Origin: Hyphomicrobiales bacterium
GTDB lineage: Bacteria; Eisenbacteria; RBG-16-71-46; SZUA-252
Assembly (NCBI GenBank): GCA_050257555.1
Contig: JBLMXB010000178.1
Span: 3,247 to 67,246, forward strand
Direction of reading: 5' to 3'
Length of the DNA: 64,000 nucleotides
Shown here piece after piece: positions 1 through 63,013 of this stretch. The notes beneath the pieces are model-generated. The model had not been told where the DNA came from. It did no database searches and was given only the letters and a program-made list of their open reading frames with translations. Numbering within the stretch: the first letter of the stretch is position 1; each line of letters starts with the position of its first letter. The translations under genes were made by a program, and so were the position numbers.

Positions 1-1
1 C

Positions 2-325
2 ACGCTCCTCCGGAACGTCGCGACGTGGACGCCCGACATCCCCGCGAAGTCGGGGCTCATGGTCGGGGTGGGGGAGACGACGGCGGAGGTGGAGGAGCTC
101 CTGGGCGACCTCGCGGCCCAGGGCGTCTCGATGGTGACCGTGGGGCAGTACCTGCCGCCGTCGGGATCACACCTTCCCCTCGAGCGGTACGTGACGCCGC
201 AGGAGTTCGCGCACTACCGGGAGTTCGGCCGCGCGCTCGGCATCCGTCAGGTGGCGTCGGCGCCCCTGGTCCGCTCCTCCTTCCACGCGGAGGAGCAGGC
301 GGGCGAGACCGTCTTCGTCTCCTAG
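2..325 (+). CDS. lipA: Lipoyl synthase, C-terminal part (5' truncated by window edge)
   Basis: Frame from base 2 reads ...PAKSGLMVGVGET...VTVGQYLPPS..HLP..RYVTP..F...ASAPLVRSSFHA, the LipA C-terminal signature. Confidence 0.93.
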   Translation, partial: TLLRNVATWTPDIPAKSGLMVGVGETTAEVEELLGDLAAQGVSMVTVGQYLPPSGSHLPLERYVTPQEFAHYREFGRALGIRQVASAPLVRSSFHAEEQAGETVFVS

Positions 326-1659
326 AGGATCGCCCCCATCAGGATGAGCCGGGCCGTCGTGAAGTAGATCACGAGGCCCGTCACGTCGACGAGGGTCGCG
401 ACGAACGGCGCCGACGCGCTCGCGGGGTCGAAGCCCAGCCGCCGAAGCCCGAACGGCAGCATCGAGCCGACCAACGTTCCCCAGAGCACGACGCCCACCA
501 GCGCCACCGCCACCGTCGCCGCCACGCGGACCGGATGGTCGCCGTACGTGTGGAAGATCGCCTGCCACGTGAGGATCCGGACGACCCCGATCGCGGCCAG
601 GATCGAGCCCAGCGCGAGCCCCGAGAGGACCTCGCGCCGCATCACGCGCCACCAGTCGCGCAGCCTCACCTCGCCGAGCGACATCGCGCGGATCACGAGC
701 GTCGTCGCCTGGCCGCCCGAGTTGCCGCCGCTCGAGATCACGAGCGGGACGAAGAGGGCGAGCACGACCGCCTGGGCGATCTCCTGCTCGAAGTAGCCCA
801 TCGCGGTGGCGGTCAGGCTCTCGCCGACGAAGAGGACCGAGAGCCATCCGGCGCGCTTCTTCACCATGTCGAGGAGGCCGATCCGGAGATACGGCTCGTC
901 GAGCGCGGCCGTACCGCCGATCTTCTGGATGTCCTCGGTCGCCTCCTCGCGCACGACGTCGACGATGTCGTCGAGGGTGACGATCCCCTTCATCCGCCCC
1001 TCGGCGTCCACGACCGGGAAGGCCATGAGGCGGTGGGTCGCGAAGAGGCGGCTCAGCTCCTCCTGGTCCATCGCCTCGGGGACCGTGATCAGGTCGGTCC
1101 GCATCACGGCCTCGACCCGCTGGTCGGGCTTCGCCGTGAAGAGATCGCGATAGGAGACGACGCCGAGGAGCCGCTGGTCGGGGCCGAGCACGTACGCGTA
1201 GTGCACCGACTCGGTCTTCTCCGCGGCCTGGCGCCTCAGGTACGCGAACGCCTCGTCCACGCTCATCTCGGGTCGGACGCGCGCGTACCGGGGGCTCATC
1301 AGCCCGCCCGCGTCGTCCTCGGCGTACGCGAGGAGTCCGTTCACTTCCTTCCGGGACGGCTCGTCCAGGAGCGACAGGAGCTCCTCCCGTTCCTCCGCCG
1401 AGACCTCCTGGAGGAGGTCGGCCGCGTCGTCCGGCGCGAGGAGCCGCACCCACGAGCGCCGCTCCGCGGGCGGGAGCGAGACGACCAGCTCCGACTGGTC
1501 GTGCGCGCTCAGCGCGAGGAAGAGGTCCTCCGCGTCGGGCCGCGGGAGCGCGCGGAAGTTCTCGATGCGGTCCTCGGCGACGAGGAGCCCCCAGACTTCG
1601 AGCAGGTCGTCCGCCGAGAGGATTTCGCCGAGCTCGGGCTCGCCCTGGGTCGCCGCCAT
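322..1659 (-). CDS. mgtE: Magnesium transporter MgtE
   Basis: YAEDDAGGLM, paired CBS domains, EATEDIQKIGG, SSGGNSGGQA, DPASASAPFVATLVDVTG; ATG at 1659 with GGAGGA SD; the ORF track's upstream extension is unlikely. Confidence 0.95.
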   Translation of the reverse strand: MAATQGEPELGEILSADDLLEVWGLLVAEDRIENFRALPRPDAEDLFLALSAHDQSELVVSLPPAERRSWVRLLAPDDAADLLQEVSAEEREELLSLLDEPSRKEVNGLLAYAEDDAGGLMSPRYARVRPEMSVDEAFAYLRRQAAEKTESVHYAYVLGPDQRLLGVVSYRDLFTAKPDQRVEAVMRTDLITVPEAMDQEELSRLFATHRLMAFPVVDAEGRMKGIVTLDDIVDVVREEATEDIQKIGGTAALDEPYLRIGLLDMVKKRAGWLSVLFVGESLTATAMGYFEQEIAQAVVLALFVPLVISSGGNSGGQATTLVIRAMSLGEVRLRDWWRVMRREVLSGLALGSILAAIGVVRILTWQAIFHTYGDHPVRVAATVAVALVGVVLWGTLVGSMLPFGLRRLGFDPASASAPFVATLVDVTGLVIYFTTARLILMGAIL

Positions 1660-1718
1660 GTCGTGGTCCTCCGATGCTCCGGTGATCGGTCGCGCGTCGC
1701 CCCGTGCGGGGGCGCCCC

Positions 1719-1748
1719 ATCCTAGGGGAACCGGGGAGGGGCGCTCAA
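1719..1748 (-). promoter_or_regulatory. Sigma70-type promoter for mgtE
   Basis: TTGAGC-N18-TAGGAT on the minus strand about 60 nt upstream of the start. Confidence 0.5.
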
Positions 1749-1921
1749 GTGCGGCGCGGGCCGCGGCTCGCAGAACCCCGGGCGGGCGCGCCGGGTCCCC
1801 CGACCCCGCGCCGGGCCGCGGCACGGAGGCGCCGAGCCGAACCAGGCCTGTTCGATCGCGGCCGGGAGGGGTATCGTCATGGGGTGCGTTCGATCCGACG
1901 TCCGAACCGAGAGGCCCGATC

Positions 1922-3367
1922 ATGACCGCGCGACACAGGCCCACGCTCCTGGTCGTCGATGACGATCCCGGCTCCTCGGGCCTCCTCCGCGACATCTTCG
2001 AGGGGGAAGGGTACGCGGTGACGGTCGCCTCGCGCGGCAGCGACGCGATCCGGGAGGCCACGAGCACCGCGTTCGATCTCGTGCTCTGCGACGTCCGGCT
2101 GCCCGACGTCGACGGCATCGAGGTTCTGCGCCGCCTGAAGGCGCTGAACCCCGACCAGACCGTCATCCTCGTGACCGCGTACGGGACGGTCGAGACGGCG
2201 ATCCGGGCGCTCCACGAGGGTGCGTTCGACTACGTGCGGAAGCCGTTCTCGCTCGACGAGGTGCGGATCACCGTCGAGCGCGCGATGGAGCGCCGCCGGC
2301 TCCGGGACGAGGCGGCCGCCGCCCCCGGCGAGCCGGCGCCGGCCTCGCCCGCCCCCACCCCCACCGCCAAGCCGATCATCGGCCGGAACCCGGCCATGGT
2401 CGATCTCTTCAAGCTCGTATCGCGCGTCGCCGGGACGAAGTCGAGCGTCCTGATCCGCGGGGAGAGCGGCACCGGAAAGGAGCTGATCGCCCGCACGCTC
2501 CACGCCGGGAGCCCCCGCGCGAGCGGGCCGTTCGTTCCGGTCAACGTCACGAGCCTTCCCGAATCGCTGCTCGAGTCCGAGCTCTTTGGCCACGCGAAGG
2601 GGGCGTTCACCGGCGCCACGGAGCGGCGCCCCGGGCTCTTCATCGAGGCGAATCACGGCACGATCTTCCTCGACGAGATCGGCGACATGTCGCTCCCGAT
2701 GCAGGCGAAGCTCCTCCGCGTGCTGCAGGAGCACGAGGTGAAGCCGGTCGGCGTGAACAGCGCGGTGGAGGTGGACGTGCGCGTGGTGGCGGCGACGCAT
2801 CGGAACCTCGAGTCGCTGGTCCGTTCGGGGGAGTTCCGCGAGGATCTCTACTACCGCCTGAACGTCGTCTCGCTGCAGGTGCCGCCGCTCCGGGAGCGTC
2901 CCGAGGACATCCCGATCCTGGCGGAGCACTTCCTGAAGCACTACAGCGCGCTCGCCAACCGGCCGCTGGCCGGATTCTCCGAGCGGGCGATGGCGGCGCT
3001 CTTCGCCTATCCGTGGCCGGGGAACGTGCGCGAGCTCGAGAACGTGGTCGATCGCGCCGTCGCGCTCGCGCCCGGATCGATCGTCGAGGAGACCGATCTC
3101 CCCGAGAAGCTGATCGTCCACGCGCACACGGGAGCGCGCGCCGCCGCGCCGGCCGCGGATCGCGCGGGACGGCCGCTGGAGGACGTCGTCCGCGAGCACG
3201 TGCTCCGCGTCCTCGAGGAGGTCGGCGGCAACAAGACCGAGGCCGCGAAGGTCCTCGACGTGCCGAGAAGGACGCTCTACCGGATGCTCGAGCGCTTCGG
3301 AGTGGAGCCGAAGCGGCGCCGGGTAGCGAGCCGAAGTGGCGCAACAGGGCCAAAACGGCACGACTAG
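1922..3367 (+). CDS. Sigma54-dependent response regulator (NtrC/AtoC family: REC-AAA+-Fis HTH)
   Basis: VVDDD, DLVLCDVRLPD receiver; GESGTGKE Walker A; ESELFGHAKGAFTGA; FLDEIGD; FREDLYYRLNV; WPGNVRELEN; GNKTEAAKVLDVPRRTLYR HTH. Confidence 0.95.
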   Translation: MTARHRPTLLVVDDDPGSSGLLRDIFEGEGYAVTVASRGSDAIREATSTAFDLVLCDVRLPDVDGIEVLRRLKALNPDQTVILVTAYGTVETAIRALHEGAFDYVRKPFSLDEVRITVERAMERRRLRDEAAAAPGEPAPASPAPTPTAKPIIGRNPAMVDLFKLVSRVAGTKSSVLIRGESGTGKELIARTLHAGSPRASGPFVPVNVTSLPESLLESELFGHAKGAFTGATERRPGLFIEANHGTIFLDEIGDMSLPMQAKLLRVLQEHEVKPVGVNSAVEVDVRVVAATHRNLESLVRSGEFREDLYYRLNVVSLQVPPLRERPEDIPILAEHFLKHYSALANRPLAGFSERAMAALFAYPWPGNVRELENVVDRAVALAPGSIVEETDLPEKLIVHAHTGARAAAPAADRAGRPLEDVVREHVLRVLEEVGGNKTEAAKVLDVPRRTLYRMLERFGVEPKRRRVASRSGATGPKRHD

Positions 3368-3547
3368 CGTAATCTTCTCTTCAGTAATATCTTCGTAATT
3401 CTCATCCGCACATTGTGCCAATACGCATCAAATTCAACTCCGACTGCCGGTTAGCCCCCTTGAGAAAACGTTCACTTTCGACGCAATAAGTCGTTGCGTT
3501 TGAATGTTTTATTCGATATAATGTTCGAGGCCAAAATTCGATATCCG

Positions 3548-3563
3548 TGGCATGTAAGATGCT
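3548..3563 (+). promoter_or_regulatory. Sigma54 (-24/-12) promoter
   Basis: TGGCATGTAAGATGCT: GG-N10-GC with TGGCA and TGC flanks, in an AT-rich region right after a sigma54 activator gene. Confidence 0.75.
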
Positions 3564-3573
3564 TTCTCGGAAT

Positions 3574-3750
3574 GTAGAGAAACCGGGCTCCCCGACGGCT
3601 TCTCGGCCCGATTCGTCCTCGTCTGCATCTCGCCCTGCCAAGAATCGAGCCGACAAGTCGCCTGGAAAAGGCCCTCGGTTGTAGCGACATACTCGCGATC
3701 GATTGCCCCCCACACTTCGCGAGACCCGCTCACCGAGGGCCCGTTTTTTT
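3574..3750 (+). ncRNA. Candidate sigma54-dependent small RNA (~175 nt)
   Basis: Starts at the predicted sigma54 TSS; long imperfect hairpin 3670-3741 followed by T7 at 3744-3750; no credible + strand ORF; the downstream gene has its own promoter. Confidence 0.55.
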
Positions 3751-3759
3751 CGATCGTCG

Positions 3760-3788
3760 TGGACACCGTCCCAAGACCTTCCTAGACT
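3760..3788 (+). promoter_or_regulatory. Sigma70-type promoter for the PPIase gene
   Basis: TGGACA-N17-TAGACT, 9 nt before GTG 3798. Confidence 0.6.
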
Positions 3789-3797
3789 TATCTTTCC

Positions 3798-6785
3798 GTG
3801 ATGCGATTCGTCGAGACCCCGTCCCGCTCCCGTCGCCGATCCTCCGCGCTTCCGCTCCTCGCCGCGACGATGATCCTCGCGCTCGTGCCGGGCGGCCGCG
3901 CGACCTCCGCCGAACCGCCGGCGCCGCCGGCGCCGCCGGCGCCGCCGGCCGCGGCGTCCCCGAACTCCGTGCTCGGGGACGTGGACGGAATCCCGATCCG
4001 GACCGACGAGTGGGATCGGATCGCGGCGCCCTACTTCCAGGAGGTCGAGGCCAAGGCCGGCCGGAAGCTGAACGACGAGGAGAAGAAGATCCTCCGGCGC
4101 AACCTCCTCGCGGAGCTCATCAAGGAGCGCCTCTGGCTCGCGGACGCGCGCCGGCGCGGCATGAAGGTGGGGGACGACGCGATCGACGCGCGGATGAAGC
4201 AGAGCGCGTTCTTCAAGACCGACGGGAAGCTGGACGAGGCGAAGTTCCTCGCCTTCAAGCGCTCCACGACCTCCAACTACCCCGCGCTCCACGACCAGAT
4301 CGAGTCGGGGCTCCTCCTCGAGGAGTACAACCGCTGGATGGAGCGGCGCTTCGGCCCGCGCGACGCGGAGCTCCGGAAGATCTTCCAGGAGCGGGCCGCC
4401 CTCGCGACGCTTCGCTATCTCCTCGTCGGCCCGGACCTGATCTCGCTCGAGCCGGAGGCGACGCGGGAGCAGATCCTCGACTACTACCAGGCGCATCAGG
4501 CGGAATTCCAGTCGCCCGACTCGGCGCGGATCCAGTACGCGAAGGTGCCGATCGAGACCGCGGAGCAGAGCGACTCGGCGCGCGACGCCGCGGCGCCGGC
4601 CGCGCTCAAGGCGGCCGAGGACATCCTGCAGGCCATCCACTCCGGCGCGCCGGTCGAGACCGCGGCGAAGGTCTACGGCGGGCTCCACGACACGGGCTGG
4701 TTCCGCCTCGGCGAGCCGATGCGCGGGCTGGGACGGTCCGAGGCGCTCACGGAGGCGATCCGGAACACCGCGTCCGGGGCGTGGATCGAGACGCCGGTCC
4801 GGAACGGCCCCTCGTTCGTGGTCGTGCGCGTGATCGAGCGGAAGCCGTCTCGGATCGAGTCGTTCCGCGACGTGGCGGCGCTCGTGAAGCGCCGGGCGGA
4901 CATCGCCGTGCGCGACGCGGTCAACGATTCCCTGGGACGGGCGGAGCTCCGGCTCCATCCCGCGACGTACGCCGTCCCGCGCGTGGCCGCCACGATCGTG
5001 GTCCGCGATCTCGCCGCGTACGCGGCGACGAAGGCGATCTCGCGGAAGGATCTCGACCGGGAGCTCGACCGGCGTCGCAAGGCGGCGGGCGTCGCGAAGG
5101 ACGACCGCGCGTGGCAGGACTCCGTGCGGGCGATCCTCCCGGGGCGGATGCGCGAGGAGCGCCGCGACGCCGCGGCGTTCCGCGCGTTCCGTGACGCGGC
5201 GAAGCGGCTCCGGAAGGACGCGCCCCGGCGCGTCGCCGACCGGGCGCGCGGCCTCGTCGAGTCGTTCGACCTCTACCGCGGGCAGCCGATCGAGGCGCCG
5301 ATGCTGATCGAGGGGGCGTCGCTCGACTCCCTCTACGCGCTCCGCCCGGGCGACGTCTTCGGACCGCGGTTCGCGCGCGACTCCGTCTACGTGGTGCGCG
5401 TGGACCGGCTCGATCCCGCCTTCGTGCCGCCGTACGAGGCCGTTCGGACGGCCGCGCGCTCGAACGCGCTCCTCGCGAAGCGCGACGAGGACGTGACGCG
5501 GGCCCAGCGCTATTTCGCGGAGCACCGCGACGACTACCGGACGAAGCCGAAGTGGATCTTCGACTACGCCCTCTTCCGGAAGGAGGCGGCGGACAGCATC
5601 GCCGTGCCGGACAGCGCGATCGTCGCGTACTACCACGCCCACCCGCTCGAGTTCACCGTCCCCGCGGTGGCGAAGCCGCGCGTGATCCTGATCCGCTACA
5701 AGCCGTCCGATGGGGCCGACGCCCGCGCGAAGGCCCGCCAGCGCGCGCTGGCCGCCCGCGAGCGGATCCGGAACGGCGAGGACTTCGCCGCCGTCGCGCG
5801 CGAGCTCTCCGAGGACCCGGAGAGCGCGGCGAAGGGGGGCGCGATCGGCGACGTCACACGCTCCTCGCTCCTCAAGGAGCTGGCCGACGTGATCTTCACG
5901 ATCCCGATCGGCGAAGTGAGCGATCCGATCGAGGCGCGGAACGCCTTTCACATCGTCCGGGTCGACGAGCGCACGCCGGACCACCTCCGGCCGCTCGCGG
6001 AGTGCAGGGACGAGATCCACGGCGTGATCGGGGGCCCGATCGCCGACTCCCTGGCGTACGCGGCGGCGGTGGGCCTCGCGACGAAAGCGGCCGCGGGCGC
6101 ACCGTTCGACTCGCTGGCGCGGGCCGCCGGGGGCGCCGTTCGGAGCGGGCCGACCGGCCCGAGCGATCCGCTCCCGGGCATCGGCGCGCTCGAGTCGGTC
6201 GCGACGGTGATCGGAAACCTCGCCGACGGCGCGGTCACCCCGGAGCCGATCGCGGTCGAGCCGGGCTACCTCGTGGCGCGGCGGGTCCGCGAGGTCGCGC
6301 CCGAGCCGGCGCCGTTCGAGACGGTCCGGGAGCGGGTCCTCTACGACGAGCAGAACGCACGGCGTCGCGCGATCGCCGACTCGCTGAACCCCCGGATCCG
6401 CGAGGCGCTGGCCCACGGCGCCGACCTCGACTCGATCGCGGTGCCGTACGGCGGCACGCGCGTGACGAAGCCGTTCGGCCGGTACGGGCCGATCCCCGAC
6501 TTCGCGCGCGACCCGACCCTCGCGCGGGATTCCACGTACTTCGACAAGATCTTCGCGTCGCGTCCGGGAGCGCCGCTGCCGCCGCGCACCGGCGCCAGCG
6601 GCACGCTCTACGCGCGGGTCGAGACGCTCCAGATCCCGTCCGCGGCCGAGTTCGCGAAGCAGCGCGACCAGGTCTGGCGGGAGCTGGTCGACCAGCGGGT
6701 CGCGGCCTGGACCGACCGGCTCCGCTCGAGGGCGACCGTCACGATCCGGGACCCGGCGCTCCGCGATCTCGCGCACGGCCTCTAG
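3798..6785 (+). CDS. Large exported peptidyl-prolyl isomerase/foldase (SurA/PpiD-like, several parvulin-like modules)
   Basis: N-terminal signal-like hydrophobic stretch, SurA-N-like helical region, PpiC motif GEDFAAVARELSEDPESAAKGGAIG...GEVSDPIE..AFHIVRV plus degenerate repeats; start GTG 3798 or ATG 3801. Confidence 0.85.
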   Translation: MMRFVETPSRSRRRSSALPLLAATMILALVPGGRATSAEPPAPPAPPAPPAAASPNSVLGDVDGIPIRTDEWDRIAAPYFQEVEAKAGRKLNDEEKKILRRNLLAELIKERLWLADARRRGMKVGDDAIDARMKQSAFFKTDGKLDEAKFLAFKRSTTSNYPALHDQIESGLLLEEYNRWMERRFGPRDAELRKIFQERAALATLRYLLVGPDLISLEPEATREQILDYYQAHQAEFQSPDSARIQYAKVPIETAEQSDSARDAAAPAALKAAEDILQAIHSGAPVETAAKVYGGLHDTGWFRLGEPMRGLGRSEALTEAIRNTASGAWIETPVRNGPSFVVVRVIERKPSRIESFRDVAALVKRRADIAVRDAVNDSLGRAELRLHPATYAVPRVAATIVVRDLAAYAATKAISRKDLDRELDRRRKAAGVAKDDRAWQDSVRAILPGRMREERRDAAAFRAFRDAAKRLRKDAPRRVADRARGLVESFDLYRGQPIEAPMLIEGASLDSLYALRPGDVFGPRFARDSVYVVRVDRLDPAFVPPYEAVRTAARSNALLAKRDEDVTRAQRYFAEHRDDYRTKPKWIFDYALFRKEAADSIAVPDSAIVAYYHAHPLEFTVPAVAKPRVILIRYKPSDGADARAKARQRALAARERIRNGEDFAAVARELSEDPESAAKGGAIGDVTRSSLLKELADVIFTIPIGEVSDPIEARNAFHIVRVDERTPDHLRPLAECRDEIHGVIGGPIADSLAYAAAVGLATKAAAGAPFDSLARAAGGAVRSGPTGPSDPLPGIGALESVATVIGNLADGAVTPEPIAVEPGYLVARRVREVAPEPAPFETVRERVLYDEQNARRRAIADSLNPRIREALAHGADLDSIAVPYGGTRVTKPFGRYGPIPDFARDPTLARDSTYFDKIFASRPGAPLPPRTGASGTLYARVETLQIPSAAEFAKQRDQVWRELVDQRVAAWTDRLRSRATVTIRDPALRDLAHGL
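3915..3950 (+). repeat. Tandem 9-bp CCGCCGGCG repeat encoding a (PPA)n linker
   Basis: About four copies giving PPAPPAPPAPPA after the signal peptide. Confidence 0.7.
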
Positions 6786-6805
6786 CCGCGCGGGCGCGAA
6801 GGGGC

Positions 6806-6834
6806 TTGCCGCGCGGCGCCGGCGCGCCTAGCAT
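6806..6834 (+). promoter_or_regulatory. Sigma70-type promoter for radC
   Basis: TTGCCG-N17-TAGCAT; SD GAGAGGAG before ATG 6895. Confidence 0.55.
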
Positions 6835-6894
6835 CGGGGCTCCTCGCGCGCTCACCACCGCCGCCGCCCCGCTCCGCTCCGAGAGGAGACGACC

Positions 6895-7578
6895 ATGGAG
6901 CGGGAACGCGTACCCTTCGATCACGAATCCGAGCCGGACCGGCGGCCCCGGGAGCGGCTCCTCGACCTCGGGCCGGGCGTCCTCACCGACACGGAGCTCC
7001 TCCTCGTGCTGTTCCGCGCGGAGCGCGGACCGGCCGGTACCTTGGCCGCGCGGGTGACGGCGGCCGTCGATCTGCGGCGCCTCCACCAGACCGCGCTCGA
7101 CGACCTGCTCGCGGTCCGCGGGCTCGGGCGCGCGCGCGCGGCGCAGCTCCTCGCGGCCGCGGAGCTGGGACGCCGCCTCTGGCCCGACGGCGACGCGACG
7201 CCGCTGGTGCGGGGCCCGGAGAACGTCTACGATCTGACGCGCGACATCCGGAGCGCGAACCGCGAGCACTTCGTCGGCTTCTACCTCAACGCGCGGCACC
7301 AGGTCCTGCGGCGGGAGATCATCTCCATCGGCAGCTTGAACGCGAGCATCGTCCATCCGCGGGAGGTCTACCTCCCCGCCGTCGCGCTCTCGGCGGCCAG
7401 CGTGATCCTCGCGCACAACCACCCGAGCGGCGATCCGACGCCGAGCGAGGAGGACCTCGCCATCACGCGCCGCCTCGTCGAGTCGGGCCGGCTCCTCGGC
7501 ATCGAGCTGCTCGACCACGTGGTCGTGGCGCGCGACGCCTACACGAGCTTCAAGGAGCGGAGGCTCCTCCGCGGATGA
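6895..7578 (+). CDS. radC: RadC/JAB-domain protein
   Basis: RPRERL, HhH-like GLGRARA, REHF, GSLNASIVHPREV, AHNHPSGDPTPSEED, LLDHVVV. Confidence 0.95.
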   Translation: MERERVPFDHESEPDRRPRERLLDLGPGVLTDTELLLVLFRAERGPAGTLAARVTAAVDLRRLHQTALDDLLAVRGLGRARAAQLLAAAELGRRLWPDGDATPLVRGPENVYDLTRDIRSANREHFVGFYLNARHQVLRREIISIGSLNASIVHPREVYLPAVALSAASVILAHNHPSGDPTPSEEDLAITRRLVESGRLLGIELLDHVVVARDAYTSFKERRLLRG

Positions 7579-8618
7579 CCGGCCGCGCTCCCGTCCGGCG
7601 ACCCCTCGGCGCCGCGCCGCGCGCGATCGCCACGGCGCTCGCCACGGCGCTCACGCTCGCGCTCGCCGCCGGGCTCGCAGGCTGCGCCGGCTCGCGCCCC
7701 CCCGAGGCGACGCTCGGCGCGGGCGTCGCCGACGATCCCGCGGCGCTCGTCGCGCTCGCCGACTCCGCGACCGCCGCGGGCGACGCGGCCACGGCACGCC
7801 GGGCGCTCGACCGCGCGGTGGCGATCGCGCCGGCCGACCCGCGGGTCCACCTCGGGCGCGGACGGTTCCTGGTCGCGCTCCGGCGCTACCACGACGCCAA
7901 GGCCGAGTTCGATCGGGCCGCCTCGCTCGATCCGACGAGCCCGGAGCCGCCGTACCAGCTCGGGCTCGCGTACGCGCAGGCGGGGGAGACGGGCGACGCG
8001 ATCCGCGCGCTGGGGCGCGCGCTCGCGATCGACCCCCAGCACGCCGGCGCGCGGGCGGCGCTCGCGCCGCTCCTCGAGGCGCGGTACACGGCCGCGGGCG
8101 TGCCCGCGGAGTACGCGCGGATCCCCGAGCAGCCGACCGTCTCCCGCGAAGAGCTCGGCGTGATCCTCGCCGTCGAGCTGGGCGCCGATCCCGACCGCGC
8201 GGTCTGGCGCTCCGACCAGCCCGACCGGACCGACGCGCCGGAACTGGACGGCACGTGGGGCGCGCGCTGGCTTCGCGCGTCGGTCGCCCGCCGCTGGATC
8301 GAGCCCTTTCCGGACGGCTCGTTCCATCTGACCGATCCCGTGACGCGCGGCAACCTGGCGCTCCTCCTGGCCCGGCTGTCGCGCGAGTGGGGCGCCGACA
8401 GCCTCCTCGGCGGGCCGGCGTCGGCGTTCCCGGACCTGCCGCCCCGGAGCTACCTCGAGCGCTCCGCCACGTTCGCCGTGCGGGTCGGGCTCCCGACGCG
8501 CGACGGCGGCCGGTTCGATCCCAGGAGCGCGGTGACCGGCCTCGAAGCGCTCCGGGGCGTCCGCGGCCTCGCCCGGGCCCTCGGCGCGTCGCCGGCGGTG
8601 AACGGGGAACCGAACTGA
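7575..8618 (+). CDS. TPR lipoprotein with C-terminal SLH-like repeats
   Basis: Lipobox LAGC; TPR helices; PFPDGSFHLTDPVTRGNLALLLAR and FPDLP...DGGRFDPRSAVTGLEAL resemble SLH motifs. Confidence 0.7.
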   Translation: MTGRAPVRRPLGAAPRAIATALATALTLALAAGLAGCAGSRPPEATLGAGVADDPAALVALADSATAAGDAATARRALDRAVAIAPADPRVHLGRGRFLVALRRYHDAKAEFDRAASLDPTSPEPPYQLGLAYAQAGETGDAIRALGRALAIDPQHAGARAALAPLLEARYTAAGVPAEYARIPEQPTVSREELGVILAVELGADPDRAVWRSDQPDRTDAPELDGTWGARWLRASVARRWIEPFPDGSFHLTDPVTRGNLALLLARLSREWGADSLLGGPASAFPDLPPRSYLERSATFAVRVGLPTRDGGRFDPRSAVTGLEALRGVRGLARALGASPAVNGEPN

Positions 8619-8626
8619 TCGCGGGG

Positions 8627-8635
8627 TGGTAGACT
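8627..8635 (+). promoter_or_regulatory. Extended -10 promoter, probably leaderless transcript
   Basis: TG-G-TAGACT 6 nt before ATG 8642; no properly spaced SD. Confidence 0.5.
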
Positions 8636-8641
8636 CATAGG

Positions 8642-11422
8642 ATGAACGTGCCCCGGCTCTCCGTGCGCCCCGCCCTCGCGGGGCTCCTGGTTTTCGGCCT
8701 CCTCGGCGGCCCCGCCGCGACCGGCGTCGGCACGGCCTCGCGCGCGCTCGCGGCGGGCCTCCCCGCGCGGAGCACGGGAGACGTCCGGCCCCTCGGGGCC
8801 CAGGACCGCGCGGGCCGGGCCCCGGCCCTCAGCACGGCCGACACCATCACGGTCTTCCACGCCGACCTGGAGACGCTGTCGAGCCCGGGAAACGAAGGGG
8901 GCTGGACCCACGCCGACCAGTCCGGAATCCCGACCGCCTGGCACATCGCGCCCACGGTCGCCTGCCAGGGGAACGCGTTCTGGTGCGGGCTCACCGATTC
9001 GTCCTGGACGGGCGACCCCGACCGAAACGGCTACGCGAACAACTGGCGCCAGACCCTCATGAACTACGTCGACCTCACGAACGCGAACTCGCCCGTCAAG
9101 CTCTCGTTCAAGCAGACCATGAACCTCGAACCCGACTTCGACTACGGCACCGTCGAGGCGCTCGACCTCGTCGAAGGCTGGATCCCGCTCGCCACGTTCA
9201 CCGGGGCCATCCCGTCCGGCTCCGCCGCGTGCGACACGTTCACGGTGCAGATCCCGGACTCGATCATCGCGAAGTCGAGCACGGTCTACTTCCGGTTCGT
9301 GATGACGAGCGACACGCAGGGCTCCTCGGCGGACGGGCTCTACCCGGCGGCCAAGGGGTGGGCGGTCGACAACGTGACGGTGAAGGCCGGCCTGAACGAC
9401 ATCCGCTTCTTCGACGACTTCGAATCGGGACCCGGGACCTGGACCGTCTCCACGTTCCCGGCCGTCGGCGACTTCTGGCACATCGCGTCGGGGAGCTCCA
9501 TCTCGCAGCAGTGCATCACCAATACCTCGAAGGTCTGGACCCCGATCGGGTTCATCAGCGGGTCGCTGGTGCCCCGCATGAACGACGTGCTCGTCACGCC
9601 GACGGTCGCCGTGAGCAACGCGGACCAGGTCTTCTTCTCGTTCGACGTCTTCCGGGTGCTGCCGCTCGGCGCCTGCTACTACTACGGGTTCCAGTTCCGG
9701 ACGAGGAAGGTGGGGCTCCCGTGGTCCTCCTGGATCGACCCGACGGGGCTCCTCTACTTCGGCACCGAGGCGGAGTGGCTCCGGCAGACCGTCCCGCTGA
9801 CCGGCGCGGGCGGCGCGGACTCGCTCCAGGTCCGACTCTCCGTGAAGGACTACGCCGACGTCTTCTGCGACGGGGTTTCCGCGTCGAGCGGGACCGCGGT
9901 CTACTTCGACAACCTCGACGTGCGCGTGCTCGGCCTCGCGGGTCCCTCGCTCGCGACGTCCGAGACGAGCCTGTTCAACGACACGTTCCAGACCACGGCG
10001 TTCTTCGGGAACGACAACTTCAACACGCCGCGCGGCGACAGCACGGTCGTCTCGATCGGCGCGTCGCGCGGGCTCAAGTCGGCCTCGCTCTGGACGAGCC
10101 TGAACGGCGCGGCCTTCGTCTCGAGCCCGCTGACCGCGGTCGGCGCCGGCGCCCCGACCCTCTACTACGGCGACGTGGCGGCCGGGGCCTACCCGCGCGG
10201 GACCGACCTCCGCTACTACTTCAGCGCCACCGATTCCACCGACGCCGTCTCGACCCTCCCGGTCGACGCGCTCACGAACGGCAGTTATTTCCGAGCGACG
10301 ATCCTGCCCGCCGTCTTCACGCCGACCACGCCGTGTCCGACCGACAGCGCCCGCGTCCTCTACGTGAACGCGTACGCGTCGCCCACGGCCACGACCGCCG
10401 TCGACCAGAGCTTCGCCGCGCTCGGCGTCCGGTACGACCGGTACGACGTGAACGGCGCCGCGGCGGGTCTCGGCAATTCGCCGGGCGGCGGCGACCCGAA
10501 CGCGCTCGGCGCGATCTGGCCGGCGACGAGCGCCACGGCGCTCTCGGGGTACTCCGTGATCGTCTGGGATGTCGGCGACCGGTCGGCGTTCACGCTGAGC
10601 GCGCAGGACCAGACGCTCCTCCAGAGCTGGCTCGCGCTCGGCGGGCGGAATCGCGGTCTCCTCCTCGCGGGGGACAACCTCGCGTACGACCTGGTGGTGA
10701 ACGGCGCCGGCCTCGCGAACTTCCTGAACTGCACGATCGGGACGACGTACCTGCGCGACATCTGGGAGACGTCGCCGCAGGACAGCCTCACCCCGACGCT
10801 GACCGGCGCGGCCGGCACGAGGATCGCCTCCGAGCCGTTCGGGCTCGACGGCGACTGTCCGGGGCTCAACCGCTTCGACGGGCTCGCGGTCGCTCCGTGC
10901 GTCGGCGCGCAGGGGCGGAGCTGGCTCCTGTACCCGAACGGGGTCCTCGCGGCGACCGAGCGGACCGCGCCTTTGGGCACGGGCACCGACAGCGCCCGCG
11001 TGATCCCGCTCGGGTTCTCGCTCGCCACCATGACGAACACGGTCCGGAGGAACCTCTTCCTCTGGCGCACGGTCGTCGAGGAGATGAAGACCCCGTACTG
11101 CACGACCCCGACCGGGATCGAGGTCTCGCCGGCGGCGGTCCCGGCGGTGCCGCGCCTCGATCCGGCGATGCCGAACCCGTTCAACCCCGAGACCGTGATC
11201 GGCTTCTCGCTGCCTCGGGCGGCCCGCGCGACGCTCCGCGTCTACGACGTGCACGGCCGGCTCGTCCGCACGTTGGCGGACGGCGTGTTCGGTCCCGGCG
11301 ACCACCGGGTCCGCTGGGACGGCACGGACGGGGCCGGCCGGGCGGTCGGGAGCGGGGCCTATTTCGCCCGGCTGACGGCGGACGGGCGGAGCGAGGCGCG
11401 GAAGGTCGTCCTCTTGCGCTGA
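8642..11422 (+). CDS. Large secreted Cys-containing beta-rich protein with C-terminal FlgD-Ig/T9SS-like sorting domain
   Basis: Signal peptide; MAM/jelly-roll-like segments (FFDDFESG..W, W.VDNV); C-terminus PNPFNPET..F.LP...LRVYDVHGRLVRTL...WDGTD..G..V.SG.YF.RL. Confidence 0.8.
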   Translation: MNVPRLSVRPALAGLLVFGLLGGPAATGVGTASRALAAGLPARSTGDVRPLGAQDRAGRAPALSTADTITVFHADLETLSSPGNEGGWTHADQSGIPTAWHIAPTVACQGNAFWCGLTDSSWTGDPDRNGYANNWRQTLMNYVDLTNANSPVKLSFKQTMNLEPDFDYGTVEALDLVEGWIPLATFTGAIPSGSAACDTFTVQIPDSIIAKSSTVYFRFVMTSDTQGSSADGLYPAAKGWAVDNVTVKAGLNDIRFFDDFESGPGTWTVSTFPAVGDFWHIASGSSISQQCITNTSKVWTPIGFISGSLVPRMNDVLVTPTVAVSNADQVFFSFDVFRVLPLGACYYYGFQFRTRKVGLPWSSWIDPTGLLYFGTEAEWLRQTVPLTGAGGADSLQVRLSVKDYADVFCDGVSASSGTAVYFDNLDVRVLGLAGPSLATSETSLFNDTFQTTAFFGNDNFNTPRGDSTVVSIGASRGLKSASLWTSLNGAAFVSSPLTAVGAGAPTLYYGDVAAGAYPRGTDLRYYFSATDSTDAVSTLPVDALTNGSYFRATILPAVFTPTTPCPTDSARVLYVNAYASPTATTAVDQSFAALGVRYDRYDVNGAAAGLGNSPGGGDPNALGAIWPATSATALSGYSVIVWDVGDRSAFTLSAQDQTLLQSWLALGGRNRGLLLAGDNLAYDLVVNGAGLANFLNCTIGTTYLRDIWETSPQDSLTPTLTGAAGTRIASEPFGLDGDCPGLNRFDGLAVAPCVGAQGRSWLLYPNGVLAATERTAPLGTGTDSARVIPLGFSLATMTNTVRRNLFLWRTVVEEMKTPYCTTPTGIEVSPAAVPAVPRLDPAMPNPFNPETVIGFSLPRAARATLRVYDVHGRLVRTLADGVFGPGDHRVRWDGTDGAGRAVGSGAYFARLTADGRSEARKVVLLR

Positions 11423-11442
11423 CGGCCTCCCGGCCGTATAGT
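11414..11442 (+). promoter_or_regulatory. Sigma70-type promoter of the rib operon
   Basis: TTGCGC-N17-TATAGT directly upstream of the FMN riboswitch. Confidence 0.7.
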
Positions 11443-11457
11443 GATTCCACTGCAGAC

Positions 11458-11580
11458 ATCCTTCGGGGCGGGGTGAAAGTCCCCACCGGCGGTGAAAGCC
11501 CGCGAGCCCGAGGCCTCGGCCGACGGCAGGATCCGGTGAAATTCCGGAGCCGACAGTCACAGTCTGGATGGGAGAAGGAT
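11458..11580 (+). promoter_or_regulatory. FMN riboswitch (RFN element)
   Basis: ATCCTTCGGGGCGGGGTGAAAGTCCCCACCGGCGGT...AGCCCGCGAGC...GATCCGGTGAAATTCCGGAGCCGACAGT..AGTCTGGATGGGAGAAGGAT upstream of ribD. Confidence 0.97.
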
Positions 11581-11623
11581 GATCACGATGGGACGGAGTG
11601 CGCCCGGCCGCTCGGCCGGCGGC

Positions 11624-11658
11624 GCCCCGCGGGTGTCTGCCTGCGGGGTGATTTTTTT
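11624..11658 (+). terminator. Intrinsic terminator (riboswitch expression platform)
   Basis: GCCCCGCGGG-loop-CCTGCGGGGT stem followed by GA-T7. Confidence 0.8.
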
Positions 11659-11749
11659 GGGCATTCCACTCGAAACAGCCCTCGATTCGACGTCGCGGCC
11701 GCTTCGGCCGGAAGTCGAGGACGCCGTCTCCGCCGCCGAAGAGCGCGCC

Positions 11750-12841
11750 ATGGGCGAGGCGATCCGGTGGGCGCGACGGGGCGTCGGCACGACGCATCCG
11801 AATCCCCGCGTCGGCGCCGTGGTGCTCCGCGCGGGCCGCGTGATCGCGCGCGGGTTCCACGAGCGCGCGGGCGAGGCCCACGCCGAGATCCGCGCCCTCG
11901 ACGCGGCCGGCGGGGACGCCGCGGGGGCGACGCTGGTCGTCACGCTCGAGCCGTGCGCGCACTTCGGCCGGACCCCGCCCTGCACCGACGCGATCCTCGC
12001 CGCCGGCATCCGCCGCGTGGTCGTCGGGATGCTCGACCCGAACCCGCTCGTGAACGGGCGGGGCGCGGCGCGGCTCCGCGCCGCGGGGCTCGACGTGATC
12101 GTCGGCGTCCGCGAGACGGAATGCCGGGCGCTCAATCCCCCCTATCTCAAGCGGCTCGCGACGGGGCTCCCGTTCGTCACGCTGAAGGCGATGGCCTCCC
12201 TCGACGGCCGGATCGCGACCGACGGCGGCGAATCGCGCGGCTTGGGCGGCCCGGAGGAGCAGCGTCGCGTCCACCGGCTCCGCGCGGAGAACGACGCCGT
12301 GGTGGTCGGCATCGAGACGGCGCTCCGGGACGATCCGCTCCTCACCGTGCGGCTCGTCCGCGGACGGCAACCGCTCCGCCTCGTGCTCGACGACCGGCTC
12401 CGCCTCCCGGTCGCCTCGCGCCTCGTCGCCTCGGCGGAGACGGCTCCCCTCGCGGTCGCGACGGTGGCCGACGACCCGGACCGGGCGGCGGCGCTCGCGT
12501 CGCGCGGCGTCCGCGTCTGGACGTTCGCGCCCGGCGCGGATGGACGCGTCCCCCTCGAGCCGCTCCTCCGCCGGCTCTCCGAGGAAGGGAGGGACGCCGT
12601 GCTGGTCGAGGGGGGCGCGACGGTGCACACGTCGTTCCTCCGGGCCGGTCTCGCCGACCGCGTGGCGATCGGGCTCGCGCCGCTCCTCCTGGGCGGCGTC
12701 GGCGCCCCCGCCTTCACGCGCGATCTCGGTCTCGGCGCCGTGGCCGACGGCATCCGGATCGACGACCTGACCGTGCGGCGTCTCGGGAAGGACGTCTGGC
12801 TCGAGGGGCGGATCGCCCCCGCGGGAGGCGGCGATGTTTAG
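11750..12841 (+). CDS. ribD: Bifunctional riboflavin deaminase/reductase RibD
   Basis: THPNPRVGAV, HAE, VTLEPCAHFGRTPPC, KAMASLDG, DDPLLTVR, VLVEGG; ATG 11750 chosen, the true start may be slightly upstream. Confidence 0.93.
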   Translation: MGEAIRWARRGVGTTHPNPRVGAVVLRAGRVIARGFHERAGEAHAEIRALDAAGGDAAGATLVVTLEPCAHFGRTPPCTDAILAAGIRRVVVGMLDPNPLVNGRGAARLRAAGLDVIVGVRETECRALNPPYLKRLATGLPFVTLKAMASLDGRIATDGGESRGLGGPEEQRRVHRLRAENDAVVVGIETALRDDPLLTVRLVRGRQPLRLVLDDRLRLPVASRLVASAETAPLAVATVADDPDRAAALASRGVRVWTFAPGADGRVPLEPLLRRLSEEGRDAVLVEGGATVHTSFLRAGLADRVAIGLAPLLLGGVGAPAFTRDLGLGAVADGIRIDDLTVRRLGKDVWLEGRIAPAGGGDV

Positions 12842-13471
12842 CGGCATCGTCGAGCGGGTCGGCGCCGTCCACGCCGTGACGCCCCGCGAGGGGGGCACGG
12901 CGCTCCGGATCCGCGCCGCCTTCGGCGCGGGACGCCGTCCCGAGCCCGGCGCGAGCGTGGCCGTGAACGGCGTCTGCCTCACGGTCGAGCGCGCCGACGA
13001 GGAGGGGTTCGACGTCTTCGCCATCCCCGAGACGCTCCGGCGGACCACGCTCGGCGCGCTCGCACCGGGGGACCGGGTGAACCTGGAGCGCGCGCTCCGG
13101 GTCGGCGACGAGCTCGGCGGCCACTGGGTCCAGGGACACGTCGACGACGCCGGGGTCGTCGCCTCGGTGACGCGCGCCGGCACGGACGTGATCGTCGGGA
13201 TCGAGACGCCCGCGCCCTTGCTCCGCTTCGTCGCGGTCAAGGGATCGATCGCGGTGGACGGGACGAGCCTCACGGTGGCCGGGATCGAAGGTCCGGTCTT
13301 CACCGTGGCGCTGATCCCGTACACGCTCGCGAACACCGTCAGCGGCGCGTACGCGCCCGGGGTCCGCGTGAATCTGGAAGTCGACCTGATCGCCCGCTAC
13401 CTCGAGCGGCTCCTGCCCGGCGACCCCGCCGCGGCCGGCGCCGGGGCGGCGGGGATCGTCGGGAGGAACCG

Positions 13472-13475
<4 letters not shown>
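12834..13475 (+). CDS. ribE: Riboflavin synthase
   Basis: [53 protein letters not shown]. Confidence 0.95.
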
Positions 13476-15284
<1,809 letters not shown>

Positions 15285-62382: not shown

Positions 62383-62398
62383 TGCATGACATATGCCA
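62383..62398 (-). promoter_or_regulatory. Sigma54 (-24/-12) promoter
   Basis: TGGCATATGTCATGCA on the minus strand (GG-N10-GC). Confidence 0.6.
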
Positions 62399-62997: not shown

Positions 62998-63013
62998 TGG
63001 CACGTCTCCTGCT
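62998..63013 (+). promoter_or_regulatory. Sigma54 (-24/-12) promoter of the mglA-like gene
   Basis: TGGCACGTCTCCTGCT (GG-N10-GC); IHF-like TCAAGGGCTTA at about 62944-62954. Confidence 0.7.

Follow-up and report, generated by a model that had tools for sequence, protein, structure and literature searches.

The 64,000-nucleotide (nt) stretch analyzed here, referred to as the window, belongs to a member of the Candidatus Eisenbacteria (assembly GCA_050257555.1, contig JBLMXB010000178.1), which are uncultured bacteria of soil and the rhizosphere. Near its start lie a gene for an NtrC-type enhancer-binding response regulator (1922-3367, plus strand, 481 amino acids [aa]) and a gene for a PpiD/SurA-like periplasmic parvulin peptidyl-prolyl isomerase (PPIase; 3798/3801-6785, plus strand, ~994 aa). 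Within the 430-nt spacer that separates the two, and outside the PPIase gene, we predict a small RNA (sRNA) of ~177 nt (3574-3750, plus strand), its 5' end placed from promoter spacing and its 3' end from a run of Ts. On comparative evidence, it is very probable that this RNA gene is real, conserved, and structured, and that its sigma-54 promoter is conserved as well. The comparative tests thus support the core reading of a preliminary description of this stretch, which had proposed an unannotated sigma-54-dependent sRNA behind an orphan activator of the NtrC type.

The activator carries the Pfam domains Response_reg (the receiver, or REC, domain), Sigma54_activat, AAA_lid_14 and HTH_8 (a Fis-type helix-turn-helix), and its translation includes D57 within DLVLCDVRLP of the receiver domain, the Walker A sequence GESGTGKE, and a GAFTGA loop. 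Its nearest NCBIfam models are AtoC, ZraR, and NtrC, all with scores below the equivalog cut-offs. No histidine kinase gene was found among the neighbors examined in window 1-14,755, and within that range the label "orphan" is borne out. The PPIase has SurA_N_2/3 and Rotamase domains in Pfam, with PRK10788 as its best NCBIfam model, also below the cut-off. Upstream of the activator gene and divergent from it is an MgtE gene, and the six open reading frames (ORFs) beyond the PPIase gene include those for RadC, a TPR protein, an FlgD_ig protein, and riboflavin genes. From the activator stop codon (3365-3367) into the spacer, the G+C content falls from ~0.72 to 0.47, the latter being the value for positions 3401-3600 versus ~0.70-0.78 on both flanks.

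Structure, strand, and distribution of the predicted RNA

The predicted RNA consists of a variable 5' domain followed by a conserved three-helix rod that would also serve as the terminator hairpin (3670-3741, plus strand; consensus fold and covariation). In the rod, an outer helix pairs GGCCCTCGGT (3670-3679) with ACCGAGGGCC (3732-3741), a middle helix pairs AGCG (3683-3686) with CGCT (3727-3730), and an inner helix pairs CTCGCGA (3692-3698) with TCGCGAG (3717-3723). The inner helix is capped by an 18-nt apical loop, TCGATTGCCCCCCACACT (3699-3716, plus strand), whose core, GCCCCCCAC (3705-3713), is invariant in the alignment of all 26 genomes that carry the rod, and the whole ends in a T7 run (3744-3750, plus strand) that forms the tail of an intrinsic terminator. 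A three-segment rod with an 18-nt C-rich loop and T7 had been described beforehand, and all of these parts are present, with the outer helix shifted by one base. A 5' hairpin at 3584-3610 did not fare as well, since it is only a 5-bp option; the minimum free energy (MFE) fold and a two-sequence consensus fold instead pair 3596-3660 (plus strand), a hairpin kept in the closest relative, L002. Among genera, the 5' domains differ in both sequence and length, and the rod alone is common to all. The distance from promoter to loop is lineage specific (157-162, 252-257, 173-192, 118-122, and 102 nt), so that the predicted RNAs range from 122 to 277 nt.

The GC-rich rod followed by T7 has the form of an intrinsic (Rho-independent) terminator; a simple terminator scanner skipped it, its loop limit being 8 nt. 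Downstream of the rod, all 26 loci have a T-rich tail (at least five Ts in eight positions).

Sequence similarity traced the spacer through the window's own family, and a structural model extended this range. BLAST of 61 genomes, the window's own included, matched the spacer in 18, all in that family, and the alignable part was limited to window 3644-3800, which takes in rod, T-run, and the promoter that follows. With a covariance model built on the rod, 27 of 41 family genomes matched at E <= 0.001. Three weak matches (L045-L047; one genome's match and two second matches) lacked the C-run and were rejected as spurious, which left the rod in 26 of the 41 genomes of one Candidatus Eisenbacteria family, with one copy each. 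By genus, these are eight of nine relatives plus the window's own genome in g1, nine of ten genomes in g4, seven of eight in g3, and one of 13 in g2. The order comprises the same 41 genomes as the family; beyond them, 110 further genomes from the class yielded one weak match (E = 0.0014). A scan for the exact pattern over one genome per species (185,579 species) returned 13 matches, 11 of them in genomes titled Candidatus Eisenbacteria. The other two (L083 and L091) are in metagenome-assembled genomes (MAGs) titled Candidatus Omnitrophota and Candidatus Limnocylindrales, and these labels or bins may be wrong.

Gene order accompanies the rod throughout this range. The PPIase gene lies downstream in 26 of 26 genomes, and the activator gene lies upstream in 24 (one at a contig end), with only remnants of it in the other two. 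Among 15 metagenome contigs with the pattern, the activator was present in 14 and the PPIase gene in 13, every miss being at a contig end. One genome of the same genus (G004; L093, G004:C380, reverse strand; 76% complete) has an orthologue of the activator (57% identity) and no RNA cassette: TGGACA-N17-TAAGCT and the PPIase gene come immediately after the activator gene, with no boxes, sigma-54 promoter, or rod. The cassette is thus a separable module, and the PPIase promoter is independent of it.

Covariation in relatives, a check named in the preliminary description, points to conservation of the rod as RNA. Alignment of 18 sequences with MAFFT and RNAalifold recovered the three rod helices, with compensatory changes in 7 of 21 pairs. 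When 25 sense sequences, 23 of them distinct, were aligned under guidance of the model (L008 was omitted so that its antisense match did not enter), 93.8% of cells were paired and double changes occurred in 15 of 21 pairs. No column shuffle out of 500 reached any of five measures, and sliding the partner by 1 to 3 columns lowered pairing to 37-49%. As examples, CTCGGT/ACCGAG is replaced by CCTGGT/TCCAGG or CTTGGC/GCCAAG and, in the inner helix, CTCGCGA/TCGCGAG by ACGTGAG/CTCACGT or CCCGTGA/TCACGGG, and the metagenome contigs added new compensatory variants such as GATGG/CCATC and AGCCC/GGGCT.

The 3574-3750 RNA folds at -70.1 kcal/mol (z = -4.19; 0 of 200 shuffles as good), and good folding is seen for the reverse strand as well (z = -3.06); folding alone, therefore, cannot assign the strand. 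Model scores were 30-102 bits for the sense orientation in 26 loci and 19-32 bits for the antisense orientation in 16 loci, and G-U pairs fill 23 of 480 cells; read from the opposite strand, these would become A-C mismatches. Two antisense ORFs (3509-3766 and 3472-3690, minus strand) were considered as genes and rejected because single-base indels occur within the rod between close relatives and the stem changes compensate one another. On the sense strand, the longest complete ORF within the window's RNA is one codon. The Rfam scan proposed in the preliminary description yielded no match to any family in window 3200-4000 (E up to 10) or in eight homologous loci (E up to 1); the only rows were Actino-pnp (E = 2.4) and CRISPR-DR20 (E = 0.27), each scoring far short of its gathering cut-off.

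The sigma-54 promoter and its putative enhancer boxes

The predicted -24/-12 promoter, TGGCATGTAAGATGCT (3548-3563, plus strand), lies where the preliminary description had placed it, with GG at 3549-3550, GC at 3561-3562, and 10 nt between. At sigma-54 promoters, GG marks the -24 position and GC the -12 position, with 10 nt separating them within TGGCAC-N5-TTGCW, and upstream activator sites lie some 80-250 bp away. Matches to TGGCAY-N6-TGC number three in the 64-kb window versus 0.25 expected. The two exact matches elsewhere in the window (62384-62398, minus strand, and 62998-63012, plus strand) may be further sigma-54 promoters.

In each of the first 18 loci compared, a single TGGCA[CT]-N6-TGC stands upstream of the rod. 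Over 26 loci the motif is kept in 25, with 22 exact matches and three that have one change in the -24 element (AGGCAC, TGGTAC, and TGGCGC), and it is found in 15 of 15 metagenome contigs. The exception, G011 (L043, G011:C131), retains the rod, has no sigma-54 motif, and is adjacent to an activator without its AAA+ domain; this appears to be one case of joint decay of activator and promoter, although an assembly error is possible in this MAG contig. The window's own genome (G000) encodes RpoN (Sigma54_DBD match, G000:C172, 219 bits). On the motif, RpoN, and a GAFTGA-bearing activator, the predicted promoter fits the sigma-54/enhancer-binding-protein class. The AAA+ domain of the activator has 22 matches in this genome and 16-20 in each of five relatives, a large set of sigma-54 activators for genomes of 2-3.5 Mb.

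Upstream of the promoter are two putative enhancer boxes (upstream activating sequences [UAS]) of the form GCC-N5-GGC (3328-3361), with cores at 3330-3340 and 3349-3359 within 15-mers at 3328-3342 and 3347-3361, a period of 19 nt. The preliminary description had these tandem boxes in an AT-rich region; the sequences are as described, but their placement is not, as they sit in the 3' end of the activator gene, inside its last 13 codons, at ~-218 and ~-199 from the promoter. A palindrome that had also been noticed, GCACATTGTGC (3408-3418, ~-140 from the promoter), is a putative third box. Such putative boxes recur at fixed promoter distances in relatives. The strict GCC-N5-GGC form was found at -225 to -195 in 8 of 24 other loci versus 4.6% expected per locus (binomial P of ~6e-6, overstated by kinship of the genomes), and, with the loci stacked, 14 of 23 occurrences of the relaxed motif G[CT]C-N4-5-GRCAC fell at -240 to -200 and four at ~-140. 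A box of the GNC-N5-GNC type lies at ~-130 to -140 in relatives, matching the position of GCACATTGTGC in the window.

The inverted repeat ACGCAA...TTGCGT (3481-3499), which the preliminary description had taken to contain an integration host factor (IHF)-like site, is present, but the IHF site itself is unsupported, with only a partial match to the consensus. As a conserved feature it was rejected: in 1 of 25 loci the exact consensus stands between enhancer and promoter, and the window has none there. A separate observation from the same region is that a terminator scan flagged window 3480-3500 as terminator-like, a short hairpin followed by TGAATGTTTT between enhancer and promoter. This hairpin could end transcription of the activator gene; none was seen by eye in the sequences of relatives.

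These data bear on whether there is a separate RNA gene at all. The rod could be the terminator of the activator gene, or a DNA palindrome for a regulator of the PPIase promoter, with an incidental -24/-12 match. The rod is indeed a hairpin rich in G+C, with a T-tail, and it lies downstream of the activator gene; and, in the available portion of PMC6292655, the Pseudomonas sRNA CrcZ is described as arising also from read-through of cbrB. However, a -24/-12 element kept in 25 of 26 loci and 15 of 15 contigs, at distances that are lineage specific yet constrained, is not readily incidental, and the G-U pairs, together with a 60- to 70-bit asymmetry between sense and antisense scores, favor an RNA from the plus strand. 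A plain terminator would also have no need of an 18-nt loop with an invariant core, nor would it account for a noncoding spacer of 300-400 nt between stop codon and rod that holds conserved boxes. We therefore consider it very improbable that the locus lacks a separate RNA gene.

Separate gene, cis element, or protein-binding RNA

Directly after the T-run is a sigma-70-type promoter for the PPIase gene, TGGACA-N17-TAGACT (3760-3788, plus strand), as the preliminary description had reported. Behind the T-rich tail, a strict expression, TGGACA-N17/18-TAGACT, found it in 21 of 26 loci; inspection of the remaining five by eye showed a variant in four (L007, L008, L014, and L016) and none in one (L015). 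The GTG start of the PPIase gene lies 9 nt, or 10 nt in some relatives, past the -10 element without a Shine-Dalgarno sequence, a spacing kept across genera, and the mRNA is probably leaderless. A read-through transcript would then have no ribosome-binding site. Given its own promoter and apparently leaderless start, it is unlikely that the spacer is a plain 5' untranslated region of the PPIase gene, the alternative that the preliminary description had set against its own reading.

The following mechanism is proposed. A kinase would phosphorylate the response regulator, which would bind two or three boxes of the GCC-N5-GGC type (at ~-220, -200, and -140) and activate the sigma-54 holoenzyme at TGGCAT-N5-ATGCT (3548-3563). 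Transcription would stop at the rod and T7 run (3670-3750), and the product would combine a lineage-variable 5' domain with a family-wide terminator rod displaying an invariant single-stranded loop, UGCCCCCCACA. Its most likely action would be Hfq-independent pairing of the C-rich terminator loop with G-rich stretches of mRNAs encoded in trans, such as ribosome-binding sites. This mechanism is favored because a large, invariant, C-rich terminator loop is also what characterizes RepG of Helicobacter pylori, a bacterium that is not known to have Hfq. Comparison among genomes carries the structure and strand of the RNA, the conserved promoter and box positions, the lack of an ORF, and the finding that the PPIase gene has a promoter of its own. 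From these we infer that a transcript exists, that the activator drives it, and that its loop pairs with G-rich ribosome-binding sites; likewise, its precise ends, its action in trans, and its targets are predictions. We put the probability of the full statement, an independent noncoding RNA gene that is activated by the neighboring regulator and acts independently in trans, at about 70%.

Several observations weigh against this statement. The RNA was never found apart from the PPIase gene in the 26 genomes, which leaves room for a role in cis, and the T-tract is interrupted in many relatives, which would permit read-through. Genome G029 (L042, G029:C286) has a promoter and rod that are intact beside an activator remnant of ~36 codons; if this MAG contig is correctly assembled, which may not be the case, activation there would have to come from a different one of the 16-22 paralogues. 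G004, conversely, keeps the activator without the RNA, so that the activator may have other targets. The double changes in 15 of 21 pairs come from an alignment that was fitted to the model, and from genomes that are kin, so that such counts overstate independence. In genus g3, the invariance of the loop is partly a matter of ascertainment, as the model that detected these members gives credit for the loop. Finally, 8-mer seeds complementary to the loop lay near a gene start in 50 of 253 cases versus 14-19% in five composition-matched controls, showing no enrichment for a crude set of gene starts (3,889 ORFs, over-called), and near-perfect 12-mer sites for the loop number only four in the genome.

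The first two of these points are what would be expected if the RNA had no function of its own and the cassette were a cis element of the PPIase gene. The sigma-54 promoter would then be a second, signal-dependent promoter and the rod a leaky terminator or attenuator, or else transcription through it would occlude the sigma-70-type promoter. The RNA adjoins the PPIase gene without exception (in 26 of 26 genomes and 13 of 15 contigs, the other two being cut by contig ends); this and the interrupted T-tracts fit such a role, as does the end of the rod lying only ~20 nt before the -35 element. Against it, the PPIase gene has its own conserved promoter and no Shine-Dalgarno sequence, so that a read-through mRNA, with a leader of ~225 nt, would be without a ribosome-binding site, and G004 appears to have the gene behind the same promoter without the cassette. 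Moreover, attenuation would leave unexplained an invariant 9-nt loop core on covarying stems, and no conserved antiterminator pairing is available because the 5' domain differs between genera. Taken together, these points make a cis element unlikely.

Alternatively, the invariant C-rich loop may be a recognition site for a protein, with the RNA acting as a sponge, a scaffold, or part of a ribonucleoprotein. A loop that stays constant from genus to genus could reflect a protein contact just as well as a seed, and both the unenriched target scan and the failure to find an hfq gene in the window's own genome (95.4% complete) are compatible with this explanation. The sponges CsrB, RsmZ, and CrcZ carry many copies of their motif, however, whereas here there is one copy per RNA. 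The signature of a CsrA/RsmA sponge, with multiple GGA motifs in loops, is absent: the sole GGA lies in a linker, although a csrA gene is present on the same contig just past the window's end (G000:C178:71676-71834, plus strand). Among the neighbors examined in window 1-14,755 there is no gene that would be a candidate partner, and we regard a protein-binding RNA as quite unlikely.

Base pairing by the loop is the favored mechanism for a trans-acting sRNA. The exposed, conserved C-rich loop that is the mark of a RepG-like base-pairing sRNA is found here as an 18-nt loop with invariant GCCCCCCAC, a sharply defined candidate seed. One candidate target, at one of the four near-perfect 12-mer sites, is a TolC-like outer-membrane gene (the family name is read from sequence alone) of 569 aa at G000:C32:7855-9561 (minus strand; locus L048/L049), which stands behind a TAGACT promoter and whose ribosome-binding site carries GTGTGGGGGGAA, complementary to the loop at 11 of 12 positions. 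The G-run is present in eight of nine g1 loci, the window's own included and the ninth being cut by a contig end; this conservation is at genus level only, since the corresponding locus in g3, g4, and g2 mostly has GGAGG-type sites instead.

Elsewhere in the genome, two more activator genes have near-consensus sigma-54 promoters behind them (G000:C154:15319-15463 and G000:C162:1216-1440, both minus strand), followed by structured stretches of ~145 nt and ~225 nt, respectively, each ending in a hairpin and a T7 run. At the C154 locus, no start of an ORF with high G+C at third codon positions (GC3) lies within 390 nt of the promoter, and the stretch contains a G7 hairpin and is followed by a second sigma-54 promoter; at the C162 locus, a crude scan flags a 107-aa high-GC3 ORF that starts 134 nt past the promoter. 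Pairing of the C-rich loop with these two candidate RNAs, both of which carry G-rich hairpins, was considered and rejected, as the energies (-15.5 and -16.6 kcal/mol) resemble those of 500 random genome segments (-14.6 +/- 3.0 kcal/mol). The wiring of an activator to an sRNA probably occurs more than once in this genome. A broader and more doubtful proposal is that the RNA, switched on by a two-component signal, is the effector of a sigma-54 envelope-homeostasis module in an Hfq-lacking phylum, its loop masking the G-rich ribosome-binding sites of outer-membrane proteins (the TolC-like gene being one target) alongside a PpiD/SurA-like chaperone. It would then be a functional analogue, made of other components, of the sigma-E-driven MicA/RybB circuit and one of several activator-to-sRNA cassettes, with C154 and C162 as candidates.

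Comparison with known systems

No regulatory-RNA study appeared, by title, among the matches listed for literature mentioning Candidatus Eisenbacteria, and the closest parallels come from other phyla. The likeness to the CbrB-CrcZ and Nla19-Pxr layouts drawn in the preliminary description holds up against the available portions of PMC6292655 and PMC5568312. According to the latter, Pxr of Myxococcus xanthus and other myxobacteria lies directly after nla19, a gene for a sigma-54-dependent response regulator, with its own sigma-54 promoter, a 262-nt spacer, an enhancer region that extends into the 3' end of the regulator gene, several stem-loops, and a restriction to one lineage; the accessible part of PMC5684412 adds that SL1 and SL2 are conserved and SL3 is variable. 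The order of activator gene, sigma-54 promoter, and sRNA, with enhancer boxes (putative here) reaching into the regulator gene, is thus shared with Pxr as far as these sources describe it. The present RNA is unlike Pxr in its phylum, in having no Rfam match, and in its downstream gene, which encodes a PPIase here and NADH dehydrogenase in the case of Pxr; in addition, conservation falls on the terminator rod and its C-rich loop in the present RNA but on SL1 and SL2 in Pxr.

CrcZ and CrcY of Pseudomonas and Azotobacter follow cbrB and have an RpoN promoter dependent on the response regulator CbrB, and CrcZ can also come from a cbrB read-through transcript that is processed (PMC6292655, in part). 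The order of activator gene, RpoN promoter, and sRNA is the same here, and a read-through or processed form may likewise exist. The RNA described here differs in having a single C-rich loop, where CrcZ, a sponge that binds Hfq/Crc, has A-rich motifs in repeat; it differs further in the lack of any hfq gene found in its own genome and in the lack of an Rfam match.

For Qrr1 (with LuxO) and GlmY (with GlrR), an NtrC-family response regulator and sigma-54 similarly drive an sRNA, according to the available parts of PMC10162802, PMC7073468, and PMC4152352. The Rfam covariance models of Pxr, CrcZ, Qrr, and GlmY gave no match in window 3200-4000 or in the eight homologous loci. Qrr1 and GlmY depend on Hfq or RapZ, and no counterpart to this dependence was found here, nor any match to an Rfam family.

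RepG is the closest parallel for the proposed action. In the accessible text of PMC8295292, a C/U-rich loop in its terminator base-pairs to a G-repeat within the leader of an mRNA, and its gene lies beside an orphan response-regulator gene. Both a C-rich loop on a terminator hairpin and an adjoining orphan response-regulator gene are found here. There is, however, no sequence relationship between the two RNAs, the same text describes no sigma-54 dependence for RepG (PMC8295292), and the target here is only proposed.

In sum, the RNA appears, from comparison of the loci, to be a new family of a known architectural kind, the Pxr/CrcZ-type layout. It is a well-supported RNA family without an Rfam match, with a complete predicted input comprising a response regulator, enhancer boxes, and a sigma-54 promoter. 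The wiring of an enhancer-binding protein to a neighboring sRNA gene, known in Proteobacteria and myxobacteria, would now extend to the Eisenbacteria phylum, and, if the loop does pair with G-rich sites as that of RepG does, the locus would provide a model of Hfq-free riboregulation for this lineage.

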